64,000 nt of DNA, from assembly GCF_004010195.1 (NCBI RefSeq), contig NC_057759.1:7591910-7655909 (forward strand), given 5' to 3'. The position numbers and the translations under genes were made by a program. A model generated the notes under the pieces. That model made no database searches. It worked only from the letters and a program-made list of their open reading frames with translations, and was not told the origin of the DNA. Numbering within the stretch: the first letter of the stretch is position 1; each line of letters begins with the position of its first letter. Shown here one piece after another: positions 7,925 through 58,964 of the stretch. Source of the DNA: Chiloscyllium plagiosum (taxonomy: Eukaryota).

Positions 7925-10410
7925 GATGTGGGATGCGGGCAGATTCGGGAAAAATGCAAAAGTAACAGGGTTTTTGTTATGGGTGATTTCAACTTTCCCA
8001 ATATCGACTGGAACCTCCTAAGTGCAGATGATTTGGTTGGAGCCATTTTTGTCAGGTGTGTTCAGGAGAGTTTCCTTACTTGGCATGTAGACAGACCGAC
8101 GAGGGGAGAGACCACTTTGGATTTGGTGATCGGCAACGACCCAGTACAGGTGTCAGATCTCGCGCTGGGAAAGCACTTTGGTTAAAGTGATCACAACTGC
8201 CTCACATTTAGCACAGCCTTGGAGAGTGAAACGTGCAGTTACCGAGGGAAGATATTTAACGGCGGAAAAAGGAAATTATGACGCTATCAGACAGGAGTTG
8301 GGAAGTACAGACTGGGAGCAATTGATCCACAGAAAGGACACAGCAGACATGTGGAGACTATTTAAGGAGCAGTTGTTGCGAGTGATGCACAAATTTCTTC
8401 CTATGAGACAGGTTAAAACGGGTAAGATTAAGGAACCTTGAATGACGAGGACAGAGGAGCTTCTCGCCAAAAGGGAAAAGACAGCTTACATAAGGTGCAG
8501 GAAGGAAGGATTACACAGCTTTAGAGGATTACAGGCTTTCCAGAAAGAAGCTCAGAAATGGACTGAGGAGAACCAGGAGGGGGCACGAAAAAGGTTTGGC
8601 AAGAAGGATTAAGGATAAACCAAAGGCGTTTTACTCATACGTAATGAATAAGAGAATGATCAGGAAGAAGGTAAGGCCGATCAGGGATAGCGGAGGGACC
8701 TTGTGCGTGGATTCTGAGCAGATACGGGAAGCCCTAAATGAGTTTTTTGCTTCAGTTTTCACCAAGGAAAGGGAACTTGTTGTAAATGAAAACTTAGAGG
8801 AGCTGGGATTGAGTCATGAGAAGATCAAGATTGATGAAGTTGATATGCTAGAAATTTTGGAAAACATTAAGATTGATAAGTCCCCAGGGGGAGACCAGAT
8901 TTACCCTAAGCTGCTCCGGGAAGCGAGAAAGGAGGGTGCTAAGCTGCTGGCAAGAATATTTGCCTCCTCACTCTCCATGGGAGTCGTAACGGAGGATTGG
9001 AAGGAGGCGAATGTTGTTCCATTTTTCAAGAAGGGTAATAGGAAAATCGCTGGCAATTACAGACCAGTCAGTCAAACGTCTGTGGTCAACAAAGTTGTGG
9101 GAAGAATTCTGAGGGATTGGATTTATGACTATTTGGCAAAGCATAGTTTGCTTAAAGGCAGTCAGCATGGATTTGTGAGGGGTAGGTCATGCCTCACAAA
9201 TCTTGTTGAGTTCTTTGAAGAGGTGTCAAGGCAGGTCGAAGACGGTTGAGCAGAGGATGTGGTGTATATGGATTTCAGCAAGGATTTGATAGGGTTCCCC
9301 ATGGTAAGCTCATTCATAAAGTCAGGAAGTATGGGAAACAGGGAGATTTGGCTATCTGAATTCAGAATTGGCTAGCTGACAAAGGGCAGAGATGGAAACT
9401 ATTTTTCCTGGAGGTGAGTGGAGTCCCACACGGCTCTGTTCTTAGGCCTCTACTCTTTGTAGTTTTTATAAATGATTTGAATGAGAAGGTTGAGGGGTGG
9501 GTTAGTAAATTTGCAAATTACACACAGGTTGGAGGTGTCGTCGATAGTATAAAGGGCTACTGCAGGCTGCAGCGTGACATAGACAGGATGCAGAGTTGGG
9601 CTGAGAAATGGCAGATGGAGTTCAACCTATAAATGCGAAGTGATGCATTTTGGAAGGTCGAACTCGAATGCTGAATACAGGATTAAATACAGGATTCTTG
9701 ACAGTGTGGAGGAACAGAGCGATCTAGTTGTGCAAGTACATTGAGCCTTCAAAGTTGCCACCCAAGTGGATGGGATTGCTAAGAAAGCATATGGTGTTTT
9801 GGCATTCATTAACAGGGGTATCGAGTTTAAGAGCCACGCGGTTTTGCTGCAGCTCTACAAGTCCCTGGTGAGACCACACTTGGAATATTGTGTCCAATCT
9901 GGCCGCCCTACTATAGGAAAGATAAGGAGGCTTTGGAGAGGGTGAATAGAAGATTTACCAGGATGCTGCCTGGACTGGAGGGCTTGCTTTATGAAGAAAG
10001 TTTGAATAAGCTCGGACTTTTCTCTCTGGCGAGAAGGAGGAAGAAAAGAGACCTGATGAAGGTGTGCAAAATTGTGAGAGGAATAGATAGAGTCAATAGC
10101 CAGAGAGTTTTCCCCAGGGCAGGATTGGCAGGTACGAGAAGTCATAGTTTGAAGATATTAGGAGGAATGGCTAAAGGAGACAACAGAGGTAAGTTCTTTA
10201 CGCAGAAAGTTGTGAATTTTATGAATGTGGTGCCAGCTGAGTTAGTGGAAGCAAAGTCATTGGTACATTTAAGTGACTGCTGGACATGCACATAGATGTC
10301 AGTGAGTTCAGGGGTGCGTAGGTTAAGTTTCTATCGTTTACATTAGGATAAAGTCTCGGCACAACATCGTGGGCCGAAGGGCCTGTTCTGTGCTCTACTT
10401 TTCTATTTTC
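7925..10410 (+). mobile_element. CR1 LINE, 5'-truncated, ORF2 disrupted
   Basis: Endonuclease motifs (VMGDFNFPNIDW, TLDLV), RT motifs (ANVVPFFKKG, NYRPVS, SQHGFVRGRSCLTNL, SGVPHGSVL, LQRDID) and 3' tail gggccgaagggcctgttctgtgct..ttctattttct; multiple stops and frameshifts. Confidence 0.95.
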
Positions 10411-13083: not shown

Positions 13084-13496
13084 NNNNNNNNNNNNNNNNN
13101 NNNNNNNNNNNNNNNNNNNNNNNNNNNNNNNNNNNNNNNNNNNNNNNNNNNNNNNNNNNNNNNNNNNNNNNNNNNNNNNNNNNNNNNNNNNNNNNNNNNN
13201 NNNNNNNNNNNNNNNNNNNNNNNNNNNNNNNNNNNNNNNNNNNNNNNNNNNNNNNNNNNNNNNNNNNNNNNNNNNNNNNNNNNNNNNNNNNNNNNNNNNN
13301 NNNNNNNNNNNNNNNNNNNNNNNNNNNNNNNNNNNNNNNNNNNNNNNNNNNNNNNNNNNNNNNNNNNNNNNNNNNNNNNNNNNNNNNNNNNNNNNNNNNN
13401 NNNNNNNNNNNNNNNNNNNNNNNNNNNNNNNNNNNNNNNNNNNNNNNNNNNNNNNNNNNNNNNNNNNNNNNNNNNNNNNNNNNNNNNNNNNNNNNN
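13084..13496. other. Assembly gap (413 N)
   Basis: Run of N inside the G-rich 3' region of the Penelope element. Confidence 1.
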
Positions 13497-42029: not shown

Positions 42030-43534
42030 AACTTCCTCTCTTTCTCTGCAAGAAAACAATGTACCTTTTAATAACATTTGAGACATGTGCAAAATGTTTC
42101 CCAACGTTTGGCTTGCATTCACTGAAATCACATAATACTAACACACTGTCATCTTTTTCATTATTTGGATGCCTTCTACCAGACTTAATATGCAAGTTTG
42201 CGAATGCATCAATGATCTGTGTTGATTTTAAACTTCAGTTTGGTTATAAATGATAACATTATTATCGCACCGATGGCAAATAAAGAAAATGGGCATCAAC
42301 ACTTTTGAAAACTCTCATAACTCAGTTTCAGAGAGATTATGTTTGGATAGAAACTGCCGTATTTGCACCTAATCAATCCCCTGTTTTTCTACTTGCACTG
42401 CAGTCATCAGTGCACAGTTCAGACTTTGCAATGACATCTGTGAATGCTGAAGTCTCCCAAACATTGCATAGAGCAAACAATTATCCCCAACTCAAAAATT
42501 GAACAAGGAAGGTACTGTATCATTACTTCATAACTTGTGATTTTTCTTACTCTATTAAATTGTAATATGAACATAATATTTCTGGAATCTTCTCTTCTGA
42601 ACATGCATATTTTAATCTTTATAACATCAGACTACTATGGTCTTTTCGTTCTTCCCCTCTACTACCTTACCTCATGGATCCACCGTTACAAAGCTTGTTT
42701 CATAAAATATGACGCCACAATCAGGATTCAGAATCAATTGCCAAATATAGCTTATTCCACGATTTTCCAAATGTAAACAAAATATGGAATAAACATTTGA
42801 CAGTGTTCCTTACGTCATCTCTGAATTTTGTCTGAGTCATAGCCTAAATATCAATGTCGGTCCAGCCTGGGGTTTAACAGTGACAACAAAAAAACTGAAC
42901 TCGCCTACAAATCTATAGTCACAATAGCAGGTCAGGGGCACAGCATACTGGAGTGACTAACTTACCTCTTCACACCAACAGCCTGGCAAGGCACAAGTTA
43001 AGAGGGTATTCGAATTCTCTCCATGTGCCTGGAGAGTGCTACTCCAACAACGCTCAAAAGGTTTGACTACATCTCGGACAAAGTAACCTATGCATCCACA
43101 AGCACCTGTCGCCTTCATCATTGACGCTTAGTAGCAATAGTGTGTATGATCTGCAACAATTCCACCAAAGTGTCTACGATATAATATTTCAAGCCTAAAA
43201 CTATTCAGTCTGGAAGGACAAAGACAGAAGGTACATCAGAATGCTAACAAACGCAAGACCCTCCTCAAGCTACTTAAGGAACAGTCTTCTGGGAAATTTA
43301 CAAATGGTAGTGTCCACATGTATCTGCTGCTCTTCTCCTTGCAGATGATACTGTATTTAGCATTAAATGCTGCTGTCTCAAGATTTTGGCGATTTTTGCC
43401 CAGAACCTTGAGGACACTACACATTGATGTTATAGGCATTTATCTAGAGAGGCAGTGAATGTTGGTGGATATGATAGCAATGATGTGAACTGTTTTATTC
43501 AGGATGGCACCAACTTTCCTGAATGTGTTTTGAA

Positions 43535-49700: not shown

Positions 49701-52056
49701 TCACCCACTACAATGTTGATTGGCAGAACAGGCGAGATCGACTAACTGACTCCTCCTCTTATATCTTATGAGTACAGCCAGCACTAATTGTATGCAATAT
49801 TCTCTGCCCCTAATCTGAATTAGTAGGGAATCAAGTATAACCTACACACCATATTACCGACAGGTTTTCTGCATGATGTAAAGTTTACAAAGGCGAGCTC
49901 TATTCAGAGGAAAATAACATCTCGACTTTGATAACTTATTATGCATGAATAGCTGCTGCACGGGTATGGAGGATGAATGGGAGCAGTTATAGGAAATTTA
50001 GCGCACTTTCATATATTGGAGTAACACGCTTTTAATCACAGCTACATATCTCGTTTAACTTCTGGACATGACATCACAGAAAATTGGTATAATCTGTTGG
50101 GATGTCGGATTGGGCAAGTTATTCATTATTCAGTAAAATTAAGTGGTTTGACTAGTGGTATGTCTCCTAGAATATCCACGTTATACCTGCTTAAAATAAC
50201 TTGCAAAGTTAAGATCTGAGCTACCTTCTTGAAGCATTTTGAGGTGTCTCACGTAGTCCTGAGCAATTGCCGTTAAGAACAAACAGTGCTGAGGACTTTG
50301 AGCTCGGTGTATTTGTTATTATTGTACAGAAGACGATTGAAGTTTGAAGGAGAGGATGTAGACAATGTGAAGACTCACGCAATGTCAACATTGTTTTGTG
50401 AGGTAATGTAGAATCCAGCATCTCTCAATTGTCTCTATTCATCAAATTTATATTATCAAATAAAGCAAGTCAACACAGAATTGTGTGTTACGTCGCTTCC
50501 TATTTTAAATTGCAAATGTTTGACCAATCTGCAAAATATGTCAGAATTCATTATGTTAGAATTGTCCATCTAGCTCAACGTCAGTTGGTAGATCCGAAAC
50601 ATTTCCTTGTGCTTCCCTCGTACACGTTGTCATGACGAACTAATACTCATTAAGTTATTAAGCTTGAATATAAATCTCAGTGGAGACGTTGTCATCTCAG
50701 ATGGACGTTTCTGATAGAGAGACAACGATCAGAAAGCACAGCTGGAAGTTGGCAAATCATAAAAGGGAACTTATTTGAAATGTCAAGGGATTTGGCATTT
50801 TTTTTGTTTAAAGAAACTGTATGCTTTTAAATCGGTTGTTTGATTCTTTTTAATATAATGTAAATAAGGTTCCAATACATACCACAATCGATTTACTCTT
50901 TTATCGAATCTGCTCACGATGACAACGTCGGAACACTGTTGCATATTTGTCATCTAGAATACCCGTATAATGGCGCAAAGGCAGCATGTGACAGTTAACA
51001 ATCAAACTGACATTTTAACAATGATAAATGCATTCAAAGTAGATGCTCATTCTGGTTGATGGCAGGGTGTCTCTGACTTTAAACACATTTACAACGGACA
51101 CGAAGTTGACAAATGTCCACGCCGTTTTGCAGAATACATTCGATCTCAATCCTATGGTGGCAGAGAAAAAGCTGTTTGAAATAAGAGTTGAAATAGTATT
51201 CTTCTATTTAGGATATTAATTTCAAATATCTGGCTGAAGCTTTCTACCAAGCACCAATTTCATTCATGTCTACACAAATGTCATGTGTAAAATTGCATCT
51301 GTATTTTGCTCAACTGACTTGAGCTTCAGTTCTTTCCTCCAGTACCCCAAGCTATCGACATTCAAAAACATTATCTATTTTAATGATGTTAATTTCGAGG
51401 GATTTATATGTTTTATTCACATTGGAAGACGTCTTAATTTTATCATGATTGTTGAGATTTTGTTCAGTGACTTTCCATAAAAAGGGACTATATTTTAATA
51501 TTGGACGATCTTTACAAGCTATGAAAGAAAATTATCATTTTATCTGAAAGAAGTTTGTATCTCTCCAGTAGTATTTAAAATGGATGTTCTAATCTAGAAC
51601 TCTCACTGAACCATTTCGGTTTACAGTGCATTCTCTTGTAAATCTTTGAAAATCTTAACTCCGAAGTTGAGCCAAAATAGATTCTAAATGGTCACTCGGT
51701 TCCTCTCTCTGAGCCCTGCCGATCCAGGAGAATTTTACCCTTACTGTCTTTCTCACTCTCTTTTTTCTCGCTAATGTTGAAAACGCTATTAAATTTGTAA
51801 CTTGATTAACAGGAGCAAAGACATTATGGAAAATGATAGTAAAGCTCCTGACAACTTCTCAATCAATAAATTATAACTTCACCTCGTTTTTGTTTCTCTA
51901 GATAAGTTTTGTCGTCAAAACGGCGAGGGCGTGCTGGGCGCCATCTATTTTTCATTTCAGATAAGAATGTGCTGATGTAATTTATTTGTTCACGCCTCTG
52001 TAACTAATAGCAGGCAGTCTTTGGTGAAATTGTGTCAGTGGAGATTTATCCTTCTT

Positions 52057-52063
52057 TATAAAA
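52057..52063 (+). promoter_or_regulatory. Candidate TATA box of the GPCR gene
   Basis: TATAAAA 93 nt upstream of the ATG at 52150. Confidence 0.55.
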
Positions 52064-52149
52064 TCTGGTCCCATTTGGAAGTTTCAGCTCGGTGTGTCTG
52101 CTGGAAATGTTTTTGTCTGCTCTCCAACAAAAGACTACTTCTGATTGCA

Positions 52150-52219
52150 ATGCAGTACCCAGCAATTATTCAAATTGAACGCATTTACTATCCTGTACTT
52201 GCAGTATTTGGAGTCTTTG
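52150..52219 (+). CDS. GPR139-like GPCR, coding exon 1 (short N-terminus and first part of TM1)
   Basis: gcaATG; MQYPAIIQIERIYYPVLAVFGVF+G; donor G|GTGAGC at 52220; phase 1 matches the acceptor at 56560. Confidence 0.88.
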
Positions 52220-52529
52220 GTGAGCTGTCTTCAAGACTATTATTTGTCCAGATAAGATTCTAATTGTATTGACGAGAAAAGGCATATGCCATTTTTAAAA
52301 ATTAAAGTAGTGACATCCGCTGCCTGAACTAAACTCTGATATGCCAAGTTTCTCAGCTATTTAGAAATCTGCTTTCGTTAATGGAGATTCAAGCAGATCA
52401 GATTTCTGATTGACAAAGAGACATTGCAATGTCTTTTTTTTTTGAAAATTGTTATTTCTTTTCGTGCAGCATATTGTTCCTTCTTTGCATTTTCTTCTTT
52501 AAAATGCAGTTTAATTCTATCAGACTCAG

Positions 52530-52930
52530 ACTCACTTATGAGGATAACAAAGAACAAAGAAAATTTCAGGACAGGAACAGCCCTTCGGCTCTCCAAACCT
52601 GTCGCCTATTTGGTAAGGATTTGTTTCCCTCTGCTCCCTACCCATTCATGTATCTGTCTAGATACAACTTAAATGATATTATCGTGCCACCCTTTACCAC
52701 TTCTGCTGGCAACGCGTTCCAGGTACCCACAACCCTCTTGAGAAGAAAGTTCCACGCACATCTCCCCTGACCTTTTCCCCTCCTGAACTCGTGAACCCTA
52801 GTAATTGAGTTCCCAACTCAAGGAAAATCATCTTGCTATCCACCCTGTCTATGCATTTCGTCATTTTGTGGACCTCAATGTGGTTCCCCCCTCAACCTCC
52901 TTCTTTCTAATATCAATAATCATGATCTAC
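52530..52930 (-). mobile_element. CR1 LINE 3' end (intronic)
   Basis: Tail ggaacagcccttcggct and ORF2 C-terminal remnants on the minus strand. Confidence 0.7.
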
Positions 52931-53379
52931 TGACTTTTGTGCTTCACTATTGAAGTATTCCCACATCTAACATTGGCCTTTGAATCTGTATTTCATTTGT
53001 CTCTTCACGGGACTCAGAGAGGCAATGCACACCCTTAACGCTCATTGAGTAACTAGATTTTCCCTATTCAGGTCACCAGATGCTGGAATGGAGTTTAAAA
53101 CTCCGCTTCTAACAGATGCCCTCCACATTTATGTAACCAGCCCTCACACTCTACTTTCTTCAGAATTGTTGTATCCAGGTGAATATTTGTGCTTATGTCT
53201 CACATTGAATATGGATGCTGATATCTATGGAAGTGAACAAACACGGTGTATTCTTTTCCTGCAGTGTTAACTGTAAAATGAGAATTCTGTGCGCCAAAAA
53301 TGAGGAATATAAATATCATTCTTCTGAAATGAACTTGAATCGATATTGCTGGAAATAGTAAATGAACAATAGCAAAGCC

Positions 53380-53810
53380 AGTATGGTGCCGCAGTGGTTA
53401 ATGCTGATGTCTCATGCAAGGAACCCGGTTCTATTCCAAACTCGGGCGTCTCATGATGATAGAGTTGAGGTGAATATTTAAAAAATGTCCTGAAACTTGT
53501 TCAGTTGTTGACGATTTTACATATTCGATGCAGCAAGATTGATTGTTTTCGTTCTGGGTTCTCGAAAGAACAGACAAATCATTAGAACGAAGGGCAAACT
53601 ATGTTAGACAAAGGAGATGGTGTGAATGATTGCAATCCTGTGCCACAGTGAAGTGTAGAAGTATAGTGATTAGGTAATGTCAGGTAATGTTGGATTCATT
53701 GTCATAAATGCCCAGAGTAGTGTGAATGTGTTCTGTGGAGGTCAATAATCAGTGATGATCTGGCATGGTGGAGGAGAATCAGGGGATGAACGGCCTACCC
53801 TACCTTTGTC
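53380..53810 (+). mobile_element. Degenerate SINE head followed by an old CR1 3' fragment (intronic)
   Basis: ggtgccgcagtggttaatgctg..ggttctattcc head; CR1-like tail gaatcaggggatgaacggcctac. Confidence 0.55.
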
Positions 53811-54399
53811 TTACTTTCACTCAATGAGGGTGAATAACTGCAGCATGATGTGACTAGGCTTCATTGAGTGCAGTATTGAATATATTGTGCTAATATTCAC
53901 TCGTTTTATGTGATATGACTGGGCTGAAGAAAGCAATACGTGGTTCATGACAACTGGAATGTTCCTGTGGAAAATGATATGGACAATCGTTTTGACTCAA
54001 AATTTTGCAAATCGGTTAGCATTAAATTCGTTGCACTGACATCTACTTTCTCACATGATTGACAACTGGGGGTTCTTTGCCAAACCTCCTTCAGAGTGCT
54101 GTTAATGGTCCAGAAATAATCAGGTGTTTCCAAATGAGGACCAAAGAGACTTAATCGGAATTACGGACATTTGAGAAGGTATTGCAGCCTTTTTTGTGGA
54201 ACCTGCTGAACATACATGGTTAGTGCTACTTTTACAATTCTGCGCTAGCCTCCTCTTTGAAGAAAAGTGACTTGATAATATTCGCAAAGCTGAGTAATAT
54301 AAAGAAAATATATCTTTTTTGACACACTTGTGTTACCTTTGACAGTTGATCGGTTCTTCTACAAGCCTGACATTAGCATTATTACACTTTTCATCTGTA

Positions 54400-55950
54400 A
54401 GCCCGTAAGACATAGCAGCAGAAATTCGGCTTTTGGACCCATTGAGTCTGCTCTGTCATTCAATCATGGCTGATACCTTTCTCAAACTCTTTATCCCCAT
54501 ATCCCTTAATCCCCTTGACAAACAAGAACTTATCTATCTCAATCGTAAATATATTCAATGGCCTGGCCTCCACCGCTTTCTCTCGCATTAGATCCCATAG
54601 ATTCACTACTCTCTGGCTGAAGAGGTTTCTCCTTATCTCAGTTCTAAAAGACGCCCCTTTACTCTAACTGTGTGCCCTCGGGTTTTCGTCCCTTCTAACA
54701 ATGGAAACATCTTCCCAACATTCACTCGGACAATTCCATTCAATATTCTGTATGTTTAAATTAGGTCCTTGTAAATTCCATTCAGTATAGATCCAGAGTC
54801 CTCAGACGTTCATGATAAGTTCAGCTTTTGATTCCTTGGGCCATTCTCAGGAACCTCCTCTGAACATGCTCCAAGGTTAGTACATCCATGCTGAGATTTG
54901 GGGGCTAAAACTGCGGACAATACTCCAAGCGTGGTCTAACCAGAGCCTTATAGAGACTCAGAATTATATTACTACTGTTATATTCATGCCCTCTCAAAAT
55001 AAATGCCAACATTGTATTTCGCTTCCAAACTACTGATGCAACCTGCAAGTTTACCTTGAGAAAATCCTGGAATAGAACTCACAAATCTCTTAGTACTTAA
55101 GACTTTTGAAATTTCTCTCAATTAAGAAAATAGTTCATGCTTCAATTCTTGGTATAGTATGCATGACCTTATACTTTCCTACTTTGTACCCCACCTGACA
55201 TTCCTTTGCACACCCTCCAAACCTGTCAAGATCCTTCTTCAGCATCCCTGCCTCCACAATGCTGTCAGTCCTGTCTTTGTATTGTCTGCAAACATAGCCA
55301 GAATGCCTTCAGCTTCTTCATCGAGATCATTAATGTACAAAGTGAAAATTTGTGGTCCCAAAACTGATCCATGCAGAACATCACTTGTCACAGGCTGTCA
55401 TCCTGAGAAAGACCATTTCATCCCTATAGTTTGCTCTCCCCCAGATAGCCAATCGTCTATCCATTTTAGCCCCTTGGCTCGAACACCGTTGGTCCCTATC
55501 TGGCTCAGCAGCCTCATTTATGGCAACATGTCGAAGGCCTTCTTTAAGTACAGATTGAAAACATTCATTGGCTGTCCTTATTCGACGTGTTTGTTACTTC
55601 CTCAAAGAATTCTAGTAGATTTGTTAGGCATAACGTCGCCTTTATCAAACCAGACTGACTTTGCCCTATTTTAACCTGAAATTCCAAATGTTTAGAAATT
55701 TCATTCTTCACAATGGACATAAAAATTACAGACGACCGAGGTTAGGTTAATTAGCCTGTACTTTTCCGCTTTTTGCCTTATTACTATTTTTCAAACAGGG
55801 CTGTCATGTTCGCGATTTTCCATTCCTCTGGGACCGTCCAGAAAGATAAAGTCTACCGCCTCCACAGTATGTTCAGCTCGTTCCTTTAGAACTGCAGTCC
55901 ATCATTTCCAGATTATCTATCAATTTTTATGCCATCCAGCTTTTCTATCT
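54400..55950 (-). mobile_element. CR1 LINE RT/3' fragment (intronic)
   Basis: Minus strand encodes FSGWQPVTSDVLHGSVLGPQIFTLYINDLDE..LAMFADNTK; CR1 3' tail near 54400-54480. Confidence 0.88.
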
Positions 55951-56560
55951 GGATAACCTCCATGAACACATATACACAAAGCTGCTGAAAAACAGAGTGT
56001 GTTTAGTTACATTTTTAGGCAGAAAGTCGGATTGTACTCGTCTTGCTGAATGGCTTCCATCTATGTTTATTCCCATGAATTTGAGTTTGTTGTAGGACCG
56101 AAGAAATGGATCCTGATTTTGTTGCCAAGATACTCTCACCACTCCATTACACATGCCGTCTTTCCAACGTTGCCATGGAGATATGCAAAGATAACAAGGA
56201 GGTTATTGCTGAATTGCTTTAATTAGTTCCCTCATCACACTTTGTTGTAGTCACAATTTATGAAGTATTGTTGCATCGACTCTGCTTGTCAGGACACGTG
56301 AGGTGCTGCTATCCATTATTGCGAAAAGACATTGGTACTATATAAATTGTAAATATTGTACATGGAACATATTTTAGGTATTTCTTTGAGTGATGCTGCT
56401 ATAAGACACAATGGATCATTTGCTGGAAGGATGCAGAAGGCAATGATCAGCACGATGTCCTTGGCTCTTGTTTCACCTGATACCATGTGCTGGGGAATCT
56501 GCAGTTGGAACGCTCATCAGAACAATAATTATTTTGTCTGTGTTTCTCTCTCTCTTACAG

Positions 56561-57465
56561 TTAACCTGTTGGCAATTGTGATTTTGCCCCGAGGAAAGTG
56601 TGGTCTCTCTAAGTGCATTACTCGCTATCTGGTGGGAATGGCAGCGGCCGATTTTCTGGTGGTTATTTCAGAACCGATATTGTACAGGATTGTTCAGAAT
56701 TATCTCCCTGTTTCTTTTTTCTTCATTACTCCTGTGTGTAGCCTTATTTATTGTTTAGTCTTCACATCAACAGTCATATCTGTCTGGCTCACAGTCGCTT
56801 TCACATTTGATCGATTTATTGCCATTTGCTGTGAGAAAGTGAAAACAAAATATTGCACTGATAGTGTGGCTACCCTGGTGATAGGAATAGTGTGTCTAAT
56901 TAGTTGCTCAGTATCTGTACCTTGGTATTTCAGACACGAACCTGAGTATATTGTTGATAATGTTCCCTGGTATTGCATCACCAAACCGACCTTCTTCTCA
57001 TCAAAAGCATGGGCAGCATTTGTCATCTTTTACGTCATTTTAACCCCTTGTGTGCCATTCCTTCTGATATTGCTATTCAATCTTTTCACTGTCAGACGTA
57101 TTGTCATAGCCAGTAAAGTCCGCCAAGGCCTCCGCAGCCAAAACAATGGACAACATGACAGAGATGTCGAGATGGATAACCGAAGAAAGTCCATTGTCCT
57201 ACTATTTAGCATATCTGGTAGTTTTGTATTGTTATGGATGACACAAGTTGTGTTCTACATTTATCGGCGAATAGTGCAGATTTATTCATATCCGGTTACA
57301 GACTCACTCTACATCACAGATTCTGCAGCAAATATGCTACAGCTTCTCAGTTCCTGCACCAACACATGTATTTATACCGTGACCCAGAGTAAATTTAGAG
57401 AGGAGGTGAAGGAATTGGTAAAATATCCATTCAATCTTCTTCTTAAATTAGTTAAGTCGAAATAA
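56561..57465 (+). CDS. GPR139-like class A GPCR, coding exon 2 (end of TM1 through TM7 and C-tail); spliced product 324 aa
   Basis: Pyrimidine tract and ttacAG acceptor at 56560; open frame with hydrophobic segments, MAAAD (TM2), TFDRFIAIC (DRY equivalent), TM3/ECL2 cysteines (TPVC, WYC), LLW (TM6), NTCIY (TM7), QSKFR (helix 8); stop TAA 57463-57465. Confidence 0.93.
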
Positions 57466-57466
57466 A
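57461..57466 (+). promoter_or_regulatory. Candidate polyadenylation signal overlapping the stop codon
   Basis: AATAAA formed by the last Lys codon, TAA and the next base. Confidence 0.35.
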
Positions 57467-57782: not shown

Positions 57783-58964
57783 TTGCAAAGGGAGGTCAGC
57801 ATTGATTTAAGTGCAAAGATAACGAGATAGAGAAAGATCGAGAATGAAATTTAACAGGGTGCAAATGCAAAGAGAAAATGATGAAATAGACAACTTACCG
57901 ATGCAATAGGTGGCGAAACGATAGACCGAAAGAGATTTATAGGTGGAAAACAGAAAGCAGTAGAATTACATATCATGGTTATGCAATGGCAAACGTGATT
58001 GTTAGGAATTTGATATTCCGGGGATTAATGCCAGCTTGTCGTCCTGTTGATCAACGTAGAATTCATTGTGCGATCAAACAGACTTTCGAAATCAAAAACA
58101 CAGACAATAAGAAACTTATTGTGAGTGAAGAGCTAGCCAATCAAAAGAAAACACAGATGATAAGCGTTCCAAAGATACTAAAATACGGAAAAACTCATAA
58201 AATTAATGTTGGCCAGCATTGGAATGAATTGAGAGTGGAAAGGGAGGACATCATGAACATTTTTTAACAGTTAATCTCTCTGCCTCCCTGTATCCATCGG
58301 TCTATTTGTACGGTCCGTGTCACTCTGTCTGTGTCCGACCATCACTCTATCTTGCCCCCTTTTTGATATAGACATATTTTCATATACCTGTCTCCTTCCT
58401 CTCTCTATCTCTTTTCTCTGTCTCTCTCCCAGCATGTGTATATGTATGTATGTATACCTTCTCCTCCCTGCACCTTCTCTCTTTCCATCTCTGCCTATCT
58501 TCTGACTGCCATTTTGTCTCCCTGTGTCTCTTTCCAAACAAACGTTACTACGTTCCTTCTGCAATCTCACAATATTCCCTCCTTCTCTCAATCTATATTT
58601 GTCGGTCATAGACAGACCATAAATTAGTAAATGGTTGATGTGTCATGGAGAGCAATAAAGAAGGAAAGAAAGGTGAGGCCATGATGTGCTCATGCATTAT
58701 CATAACAAATGGTGGGGTACACTCGAGAGAATGATTTGAGCGTGTTTGTTCCGAGGTTTCAAGCTCATATATTGTTCCTCTCGTATCTATTTATTCACCA
58801 TTTGTCTCTTTCAGTCAACGTCATTCTCTCTCTCTCTCTCTCTTACTCTGTCTCACCGCCCCTCCACCCCATTCCTATAATCACAGCTTTCAAATATTCC
58901 AGTGTCAAACGTGTATCCGACAATAATTGGAATATTCGTGATGGTGGTCCACAATTTCATTTTG

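Follow-up and report, generated by a model that had tools for sequence, protein, structure and literature searches.

A two-exon GPR139-related receptor gene of Chiloscyllium plagiosum and the large cartilaginous-fish receptor family to which it belongs

The window analyzed here is a stretch of 64,000 nucleotides from the shark Chiloscyllium plagiosum (contig NC_057759.1, positions 7,591,910 to 7,655,909 of the forward strand), and its subject is a gene encoding a receptor of the G-protein-coupled type (GPCR) at positions 52150–57465 of that window. The gene was confirmed, with a predicted splice, as an intact and real two-exon gene for a class A receptor of 324 amino acids, and it is, by comparison of protein sequences, one member of a very large cartilaginous-fish receptor family. 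This family would form a large class A repertoire with ligand-diversified pockets and is apparently undescribed in the literature. Taken alone, the gene is an ordinary and well-preserved member, and the finding lies in the family. On the fuller reading, which is held at even confidence, the gene would encode a functional class A GPCR that has long belonged to a very large cartilaginous-fish repertoire, one that arose from the GPR139/GPR142 branch.

A protein search with exon 2 of the gene yielded 3976 candidates, 2097 of them at E ≤ 1e-10, and the statistics given below for the named family rest on the best 120 of these 2097 matches. New here are the comparison of the pocket between orthologs and paralogs, the use of a low-copy group as control, and a salamander gene as likely sister; the genes themselves are already in NCBI under an automatic name.

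Gene structure and family membership

Coding exon 1 (70 nt, 52150–52219, + strand) encodes about 10 extracellular residues and most of transmembrane helix (TM) 1, corresponding to profile match positions 1–24. It is followed by a phase-1 GT-AG intron of 4341 nt (52220–56560, +) with a GTGAG 5′ end, a polypyrimidine tract and a CAG 3′ end, in which repeat depth marks high-copy repeats at ~52500–52900 and ~54300–55700. Coding exon 2 (905 nt, 56561–57465, +) runs from the end of TM1 through TM7 and helix 8 to the stop codon. The exons join in codon 24 to give 324 amino acids plus stop without interruption, and an in-frame stop lies 18 nt 5′ of the ATG. The preliminary description had proposed the same two exons, intron and in-phase protein, which stand after re-derivation of the coordinates and with homologues matching exon 1. 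It had also stated that the open reading frame (ORF) track misses the true start, and the stop-to-stop ORF at 56353–57465 does miss it, running through the intron end. A single-exon reading from a Met at 56362–56485 was rejected, as the matches of relatives lie in exon 1 and not there.

The region of exon 1 (52000–52199) was matched by 68 of the 120 homologues (tblastn, E ≤ 1; best listed 2e-6), and exactly 24 residues precede N1.50 in 49/120 relatives, as they do in this gene; exon 1 is therefore not a chance pick. The exon-1 peptide is absent from the nearest database models (P0002, P0004 and P0005, named below), so the small exon was missed in those annotations too.

A TATAAA box (52057–52062, +) lies 93 nt 5′ of the start codon and is likely the core promoter. 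Between it and the start is an out-of-frame upstream ATG (52107–52109, +), whose short frame overlaps the start and could damp translation. A candidate polyadenylation signal, AATAAA (57461–57466, +), lies over the stop codon, with a second AATAAA at 58654; if the first were used, the 3′ untranslated region would be only ~15–25 nt.

Exon 2 matched 7tm_1 in Pfam (73.9 bits, E 1.9e-20), and its AlphaFold2 model, built on a 103-row alignment (predicted local distance difference test score 90.7), contained the TM helices, a β-hairpin in extracellular loop 2 (ECL2) and helix 8. Its residues include C83 (3.25), C162 (ECL2), D54 (2.50), W249 (6.48) and Q252 (6.51). A class A receptor is thus represented by the 7tm_1 match, seven helices plus helix 8, and N1.50, D2.50, R3.50, W6.48 and Y7.53.

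Contigs of runs X1 and X2 span exon 2 without gaps, and X1 also spans exon 1. The three listed coding differences assigned to the gene's own contigs in these runs are all synonymous, in a list with 13 further rows. Differences at 56753–56796 and 57069 come from contigs read as paralogs, and the summed contig depth at 56796 (~148 times the own-contig depth in X1, ~132 times in X2) fits many similar copies and is not a copy number. At 52073 and 52434, both non-coding, one base is missing in the contigs of both runs; assembly errors or alleles are possible.

The preliminary description had pointed to a very short N-terminus and altered motifs as distinctive of this gene. The features are there (~10 residues before TM1; no N-X-S/T sequon in the 324-aa protein; DRF at 107–109, LLWMT at 247–251 and NTCIY at 291–295), but they are family traits: DRF is found in 116 of the 120 relatives, NTCIY in 108, T6.50 in 107 and W6.48 in 119, C3.25 in 117 and the ECL2 cysteine in all 120, and a sequon is absent from the leader in all 51 relatives whose leader is complete. 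In human GPR139 itself, position 7.50 is F and not P, and putting P back all but eliminates signaling (excerpts of PMC8807744). The short N-terminus and odd motifs are therefore not special to this gene, and a broken or unusual receptor was ruled out as their explanation. Since 8 of 70 divergent representatives still have P6.50, this residue was lost within the family.

Sharks, skates or rays are named as the source of 119 of the best 120 matches, the remaining one being unnamed, and the set included 43 Heterodontus and 37 Heptranchias proteins. Most carry the automatic name 'probable G-protein coupled receptor 139', in keeping with the many GPR139-like annotations that had been expected in cartilaginous fish; the present gene belongs to this NCBI set, whose name hides the expansion. 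Other family members are automatically named tachykinin-like 86C, GPR15-like, GPR39-like, vasopressin V2-like, capa receptor-like or uncharacterized, so counting by name understates the size of the family. An unindexed search gave 111 clusters (50% identity, E ≤ 1e-30), many of their representatives being shorter fragments; 19 of the clusters were looked up, of which 17 were from cartilaginous fish (one from the chimaera Callorhinchus), one from a salamander and one unnamed. ESM Atlas matches comprised only automatic 'probable GPR139' and FMRFamide-like clusters. By these database counts the family is a large multigene family.

Within it, the gene is nested among family rows and has the 24-residue leader, GKCGLSKC, SVWLTVAFTFDRF, RKSI and NTCIY, and it matches 74 of the 79 columns that are conserved at ≥95%. 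Its closest relatives are Rhincodon XP_048476959.1 (P0002, 87% identical), Scyliorhinus XP_038642630.1 (P0005, 74%) and Heterodontus XP_067911623.1 (P0004, 75%). Trees were built from 91 rows (quick) and from 46 of those rows (careful, LG+G4, no mixture model), and the gene joined P0002 (100/100), then P0005 (97/85), then P0004 (100/94). It is a long-standing member of the family, represented in two further shark orders, and not a fresh duplicate.

Pocket variation and proposed function

Variation was scored at 35 pocket-facing positions, numbered from helix anchors and the alignment to GPR139, and on the cytoplasmic side. The control was a low-copy orthogroup around coelacanth XP_005988539.1 (P0238), with about one match per species from sharks to reptiles, teleosts and amphibians included (best 120 of 145 matches); as a check on the numbering, it was nearly invariant at the GPR139 positions named in excerpts of PMC8807744. 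Mean entropies of pocket and cytoplasmic sites were 1.56 and 0.51 bits in the 43 Heterodontus proteins, 1.45 and 0.34 in the 37 Heptranchias proteins and 1.77 and 0.61 in all 120, whereas the low-copy orthogroup gave 0.63 and 1.13 despite its lower mean pairwise identity (0.63 vs 0.71). Pocket sites also exceeded other outer-TM sites in the family (1.77 vs 1.18, p = 0.014) and in the 48 near-complete of the 70 divergent representatives (2.54 vs 1.98, p = 0.0009), and were less variable than them in the low-copy orthogroup (0.65 vs 1.21, p = 0.0007), these p values being rough because sites are not independent. Nine-site pocket signatures numbered 43 in 43 Heterodontus proteins, 117 in the 120 of the family and 16 in the 120 of the low-copy group.

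For orthologs, variable pocket sites were defined with the 10 nearest rows excluded. This gene was identical to Rhincodon P0002 at 19 of 21 such sites and to Scyliorhinus P0005 also at 19 of 21, against a mean background match of 27% over 110 paralogs; six other near-clade rows matched at 12–17 of 21. P0005, 74% identical overall, agreed with this gene at 19 of the 28 remaining hypervariable sites. The pocket is thus kept among orthologs and variable among paralogs, as in a receptor repertoire. Sites of this kind, conserved in orthologs and variable in paralogs, were reportedly used by Man, Gilad and Lancet in 2004 to find odorant-binding sites in olfactory receptors. The pattern indicates that ligands may differ among family members and that the one bound by this member would have been stable for long, and a ligand-diversified repertoire is very probable.

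In the mechanism proposed, each member would bind its own small ligand between TM3, TM5, TM6 and TM7, beneath the disulfide-tied ECL2 hairpin; binding would move W6.48 and F6.44; and the common cytoplasmic face would signal to one shared G protein, probably Gq/11 by analogy with GPR139. The most likely setting would be sensory cells that detect outside chemicals, in the nose or taste buds or as solitary chemosensory cells, and external chemosensation comes close to an even chance.

Several points weigh against this interpretation. The pocket positions come from helix anchors and sequence alignment rather than from a superposed model, the best-120 set was chosen by likeness to the query, and the trees contain family, low-copy and salamander rows and no true GPR139 or GPR142. 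Low cytoplasmic variation could come partly from recent duplication or gene conversion. In RNA run X5 (single-cell, ~2% read), all 47 reads fell on repeats of the intron, none of them at ≥99%; no read lay on the exons, and no joint matched the intron. The top 50 genes of a catshark brain and olfactory epithelium library include no GPCR in excerpts of PMC11979771, a weak point, as known receptors were missed there too. Finally, the pocket pattern cannot separate sensory from immune or gut use.

The same variable pocket and fixed cytoplasmic face are predicted for an immune or barrier repertoire, in which leukocyte or epithelial receptors for microbial metabolites or peptides would have been diversified by pathogen pressure, as mammalian formyl-peptide receptors and MRGPRs have been. 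MAS1 and its relatives are absent from cartilaginous fish in excerpts of PMC8455134, and another family could fill their role. However, the pocket of this gene has long been kept across shark orders, as would be expected more of a stable ligand than of an arms race, and the nearest solved relative is GPR139, at 106.8 bits versus 67.2 for chemokine-type receptors. Immune use is considered unlikely.

Selfish or neutral amplification, with many copies of little function and this gene possibly a pseudogene, would account for the tail remnant ~9 kb away (described below), the repeat-rich region, the absence of X5 reads from the exons and the many shorter fragments among the representatives. Neutral decay would not give region-specific variation, however, and the gene has an intact frame, keeps 74 of the 79 strongly conserved columns, has no gaps in the coding contigs of X1 and X2, and has counterparts 87% and 74% identical in two other sharks with the pocket better kept than the rest. 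This explanation is highly improbable.

Relation to GPR139 and nature of the ligand

The gene is almost certainly a paralog and not the GPR139 ortholog, judged from identity, scores and pocket residues, and the earlier proposal of a divergent paralog from a cartilaginous-fish expansion agrees with these and with the family counts. Human GPR139 (PDB 7VUG-7VUJ, 9M42) was the top PDB match of the protein by sequence (E 1.5e-9) and of the family profile (E 1.1e-29, 106.8 bits; next, neurotensin receptor 1, 78.1 bits), and GPR139 structure 7vui ranked first in the fold comparison by a thin margin; GPR139 was also the nearest characterized receptor for the relatives P0238, P0267 and P0227. Identity to human GPR139 is ~21–24% (Foldseek 21%; hand count ~69 identities over 286 residues), versus 70% for the zebrafish GPR139 (excerpts of PMC7318219), and human GPR139 is matched more strongly by amphioxus P0257 (100.8 bits) and coelacanth P0238 (70.4 bits) than by this protein (41 bits), all of which argues against orthology.

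Two coding exons are common to this gene and GPR139 (excerpts of PMC7318219), and F3.33, W6.48, N7.38 and L7.42 are kept in both, neither of which has P7.50. Unlike GPR139, this gene has Q252 instead of R at 6.51, lacks P6.50, and has Y65, Y87, V90, S278 and Y181 in place of acidic 2.61, 3.29, 3.32 and 7.35 and of H5.43; it has the C3.25–ECL2 cysteine pair, the GPR139 alignment being without a cysteine at 3.25, and its family is multi-copy with a variable pocket. Human GPR139 presumably has an intron at the equivalent TM1 position, in phase 1 just before N1.50, and many database models of the expanded family and of the low-copy group break at the TM1 intron point. True GPR139 or GPR142 was not recognized in searches from coelacanth P0238 (best 120 of 145 matches) or amphioxus P0257 (nine matches, all amphioxus or unnamed), nor in a motif scan of the retrieved proteins.

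The low-copy group resembles this gene in its short N-terminus, T6.50, lack of P7.50, C3.25–ECL2 pair and RKSI-like start of TM6, but differs in having about one database match per species and a nearly invariant GPR139-type pocket (E2.61 in 120/120, D or E at 3.29, Y3.33 in 119, Q5.43 in 116, R6.51 in 119 and D7.35 in 118). It is a good candidate for an amino-acid receptor, and its shark members P0276, P0279 and P0283 have the full GPR139-type pocket; S or C stands in place of W6.48 in this group. Both trees set it apart from the expanded family, and forcing the present gene into it was rejected (approximately unbiased test, p-AU 1.25e-36). No bird or mammal names occurred among the best 120 of its 145 matches. 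Rinne et al. (2019; excerpts of PMC6504862) named GPR210A/B as non-mammalian subtypes beside GPR139/142, with no mention of sharks in those excerpts; the coelacanth group probably falls among these subtypes, the match being a candidate label only. Two of its members, P0279 (Stegostoma) and P0377 (Hyla), are annotated as TMEM183A isoforms, which suggests that the low-copy gene lies in or beside TMEM183A and offers a handle for synteny.

A salamander protein, Pleurodeles XP_069092602.1 (P0227), is 32% identical to this protein and belongs to a small cluster of five members named 'probable GPR139', also found in Ambystoma and Lissotriton; unlike this gene, it keeps P6.50 and a basic residue at 6.51. 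In the careful tree it was sister to the 28 family rows (93/89, not starred; its branch is long and its place uncertain), and joining it to the low-copy group was weakly rejected (p-AU 0.03). With the salamander gene as likely sister, the lineage is not confined to cartilaginous fish. The expansion that the preliminary description called lineage-specific is thus found in cartilaginous fish, but the lineage itself is probably older than the divergence of cartilaginous from bony fish, having expanded only in the former, and the salamander cluster is likely its relic in bony vertebrates.

The pocket of this member is mostly aromatic and uncharged (Y65, Y87, V90, F91, Y181, Q252, Y256 and N281). 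Such a pocket points to a ligand that is neutral or hydrophobic and away from zwitterionic Trp or Phe. In GPR139, the positive charge at 6.51 is critical and the amine of Trp or Phe was docked toward acidic 2.61, 3.29, 3.32 and 7.35 (excerpts of PMC8807744); since this gene has Q at 6.51 and none of those acidic residues, sensing of Trp or Phe in the GPR139 manner is unlikely. The 28 of the 120 relatives that have R at 6.51 may do so; a further seven have K. The amino-acid or chemosensory repertoire suggested earlier is therefore borne out in its repertoire-like pocket variation and weakened in its amino-acid part.

These residues bear on a further alternative, that the family comprises internal nutrient or metabolite sensors (gut, islet, brain) extending the GPR139/GPR142 role to many amino acids and their derivatives. 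In its favor, GPR139 ranks first among PDB matches in sequence, profile and fold alike; R6.51 (28/120) or K (7/120), the majority H5.43 (80/120), and the F3.33, W6.48, N7.38 and L7.42 kept in this member also agree with it. Yet this member has Q6.51, Y2.61, Y3.29, V3.32, Y5.43 and S7.35, sharks already possess the low-copy paralog with the full GPR139-type pocket, and tens to hundreds of pockets would seem more than internal nutrient sensing needs. This alternative is rather unlikely.

Receptors for a diversified endogenous or pheromonal peptide family would fit the predicted ECL2 β-hairpin and the C3.25–ECL2 cysteine pair (117 and 120 of 120), which are typical of peptide receptors. The wider branch also has invertebrate FMRFamide-like receptors, and alpha-MSH activates GPR139 (excerpts of PMC8807744). 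Against this, the N-terminus has only ~10 extracellular residues and no sequon (0/51 full-leader relatives). We also know of no matching large peptide family, and peptide ligands appear quite improbable.

The most far-reaching reading, a further vertebrate chemosensory family of tens to hundreds of genes per genome that cartilaginous fish would have built from a GPR139-like amino-acid receptor by diversification of its pocket, is put forward tentatively, at somewhat less than an even chance.

Genomic surroundings, significance and comparison with known repertoires

A stretch 9.3 kb upstream on the opposite strand (42769–42843, −), with a stop before it, resembles the part beyond TM7 in family members, the C-terminal tail. 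It was matched by 62 of the 120 homologues at E ≤ 1 (best listed 0.001) and by the profile at an independent E value of 0.0046, which is weak but consistent, and it is probably the remnant of a lost paralog in opposite orientation. No other family members or other parts of the remnant's gene were found in the 64-kb window. Seven other ORFs of the window were compared with Pfam, giving one reverse-transcriptase fragment and six without a match, and no other protein-coding gene was recognized in the window from the ORF list and Pfam. A decayed long interspersed nuclear element (LINE) reverse-transcriptase region with a weak RVT_1 match lies at 8494–10295 (+), and a 413-N assembly gap lies within a repeat-like region at 13084–13496. 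A 26-bp upstream satellite was not found by tandem-repeat search or by autocorrelation at lags 25–27 and 52, and Rfam gave no matches in the window.

No published description of the expansion was found in literature searches, whose coverage was thin for subscription journals, and 12 of the 24 supplement files of PMC8455134 gave no matches to it. Excerpts of that whale shark genome paper describe a relative paucity of GPCRs in cartilaginous fish, and those of PMC6368271 describe a catshark olfactory repertoire in which V2Rs dominate and the OR, ORA and TAAR families have 5–8 genes each; in the excerpted main text of the catshark reference paper (PMC11979771), no gene name begins with 'gpr'. A large family with repertoire-type pockets challenges this picture of GPCR-poor sharks with few olfactory genes and brings within reach of testing the standing question of how many chemicals can be sensed by sharks whose known receptors are so few. 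Should the family be chemosensory, it would outnumber the known shark OR, TAAR and V1R genes many times over, would overturn the view of sharks as GPCR-poor and almost only V2R-reliant, and would leave bony vertebrates with only a small relic such as the salamander gene; in an immune or gut role it would likewise be a large repertoire of vertebrate receptors not described before. As a first target this gene is well suited, having a clear counterpart with the same pocket in a laboratory shark (catshark XP_038642630.1). The low-copy paralog and the salamander gene can serve as natural controls, and the family offers a mutagenesis series, made by nature, around the pocket of GPR139.

Set against the known chemoreceptor repertoires, the family showed no sequence kinship with them (7tm_1 was the only Pfam match, and none of them was among the 23 PDB sequence matches). 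It is nevertheless like the OR, TAAR, V1R/ORA, TAS2R, FPR and MRGPR repertoires in being large, in consisting of short genes and in having a pocket that is conserved among orthologs and variable among paralogs.

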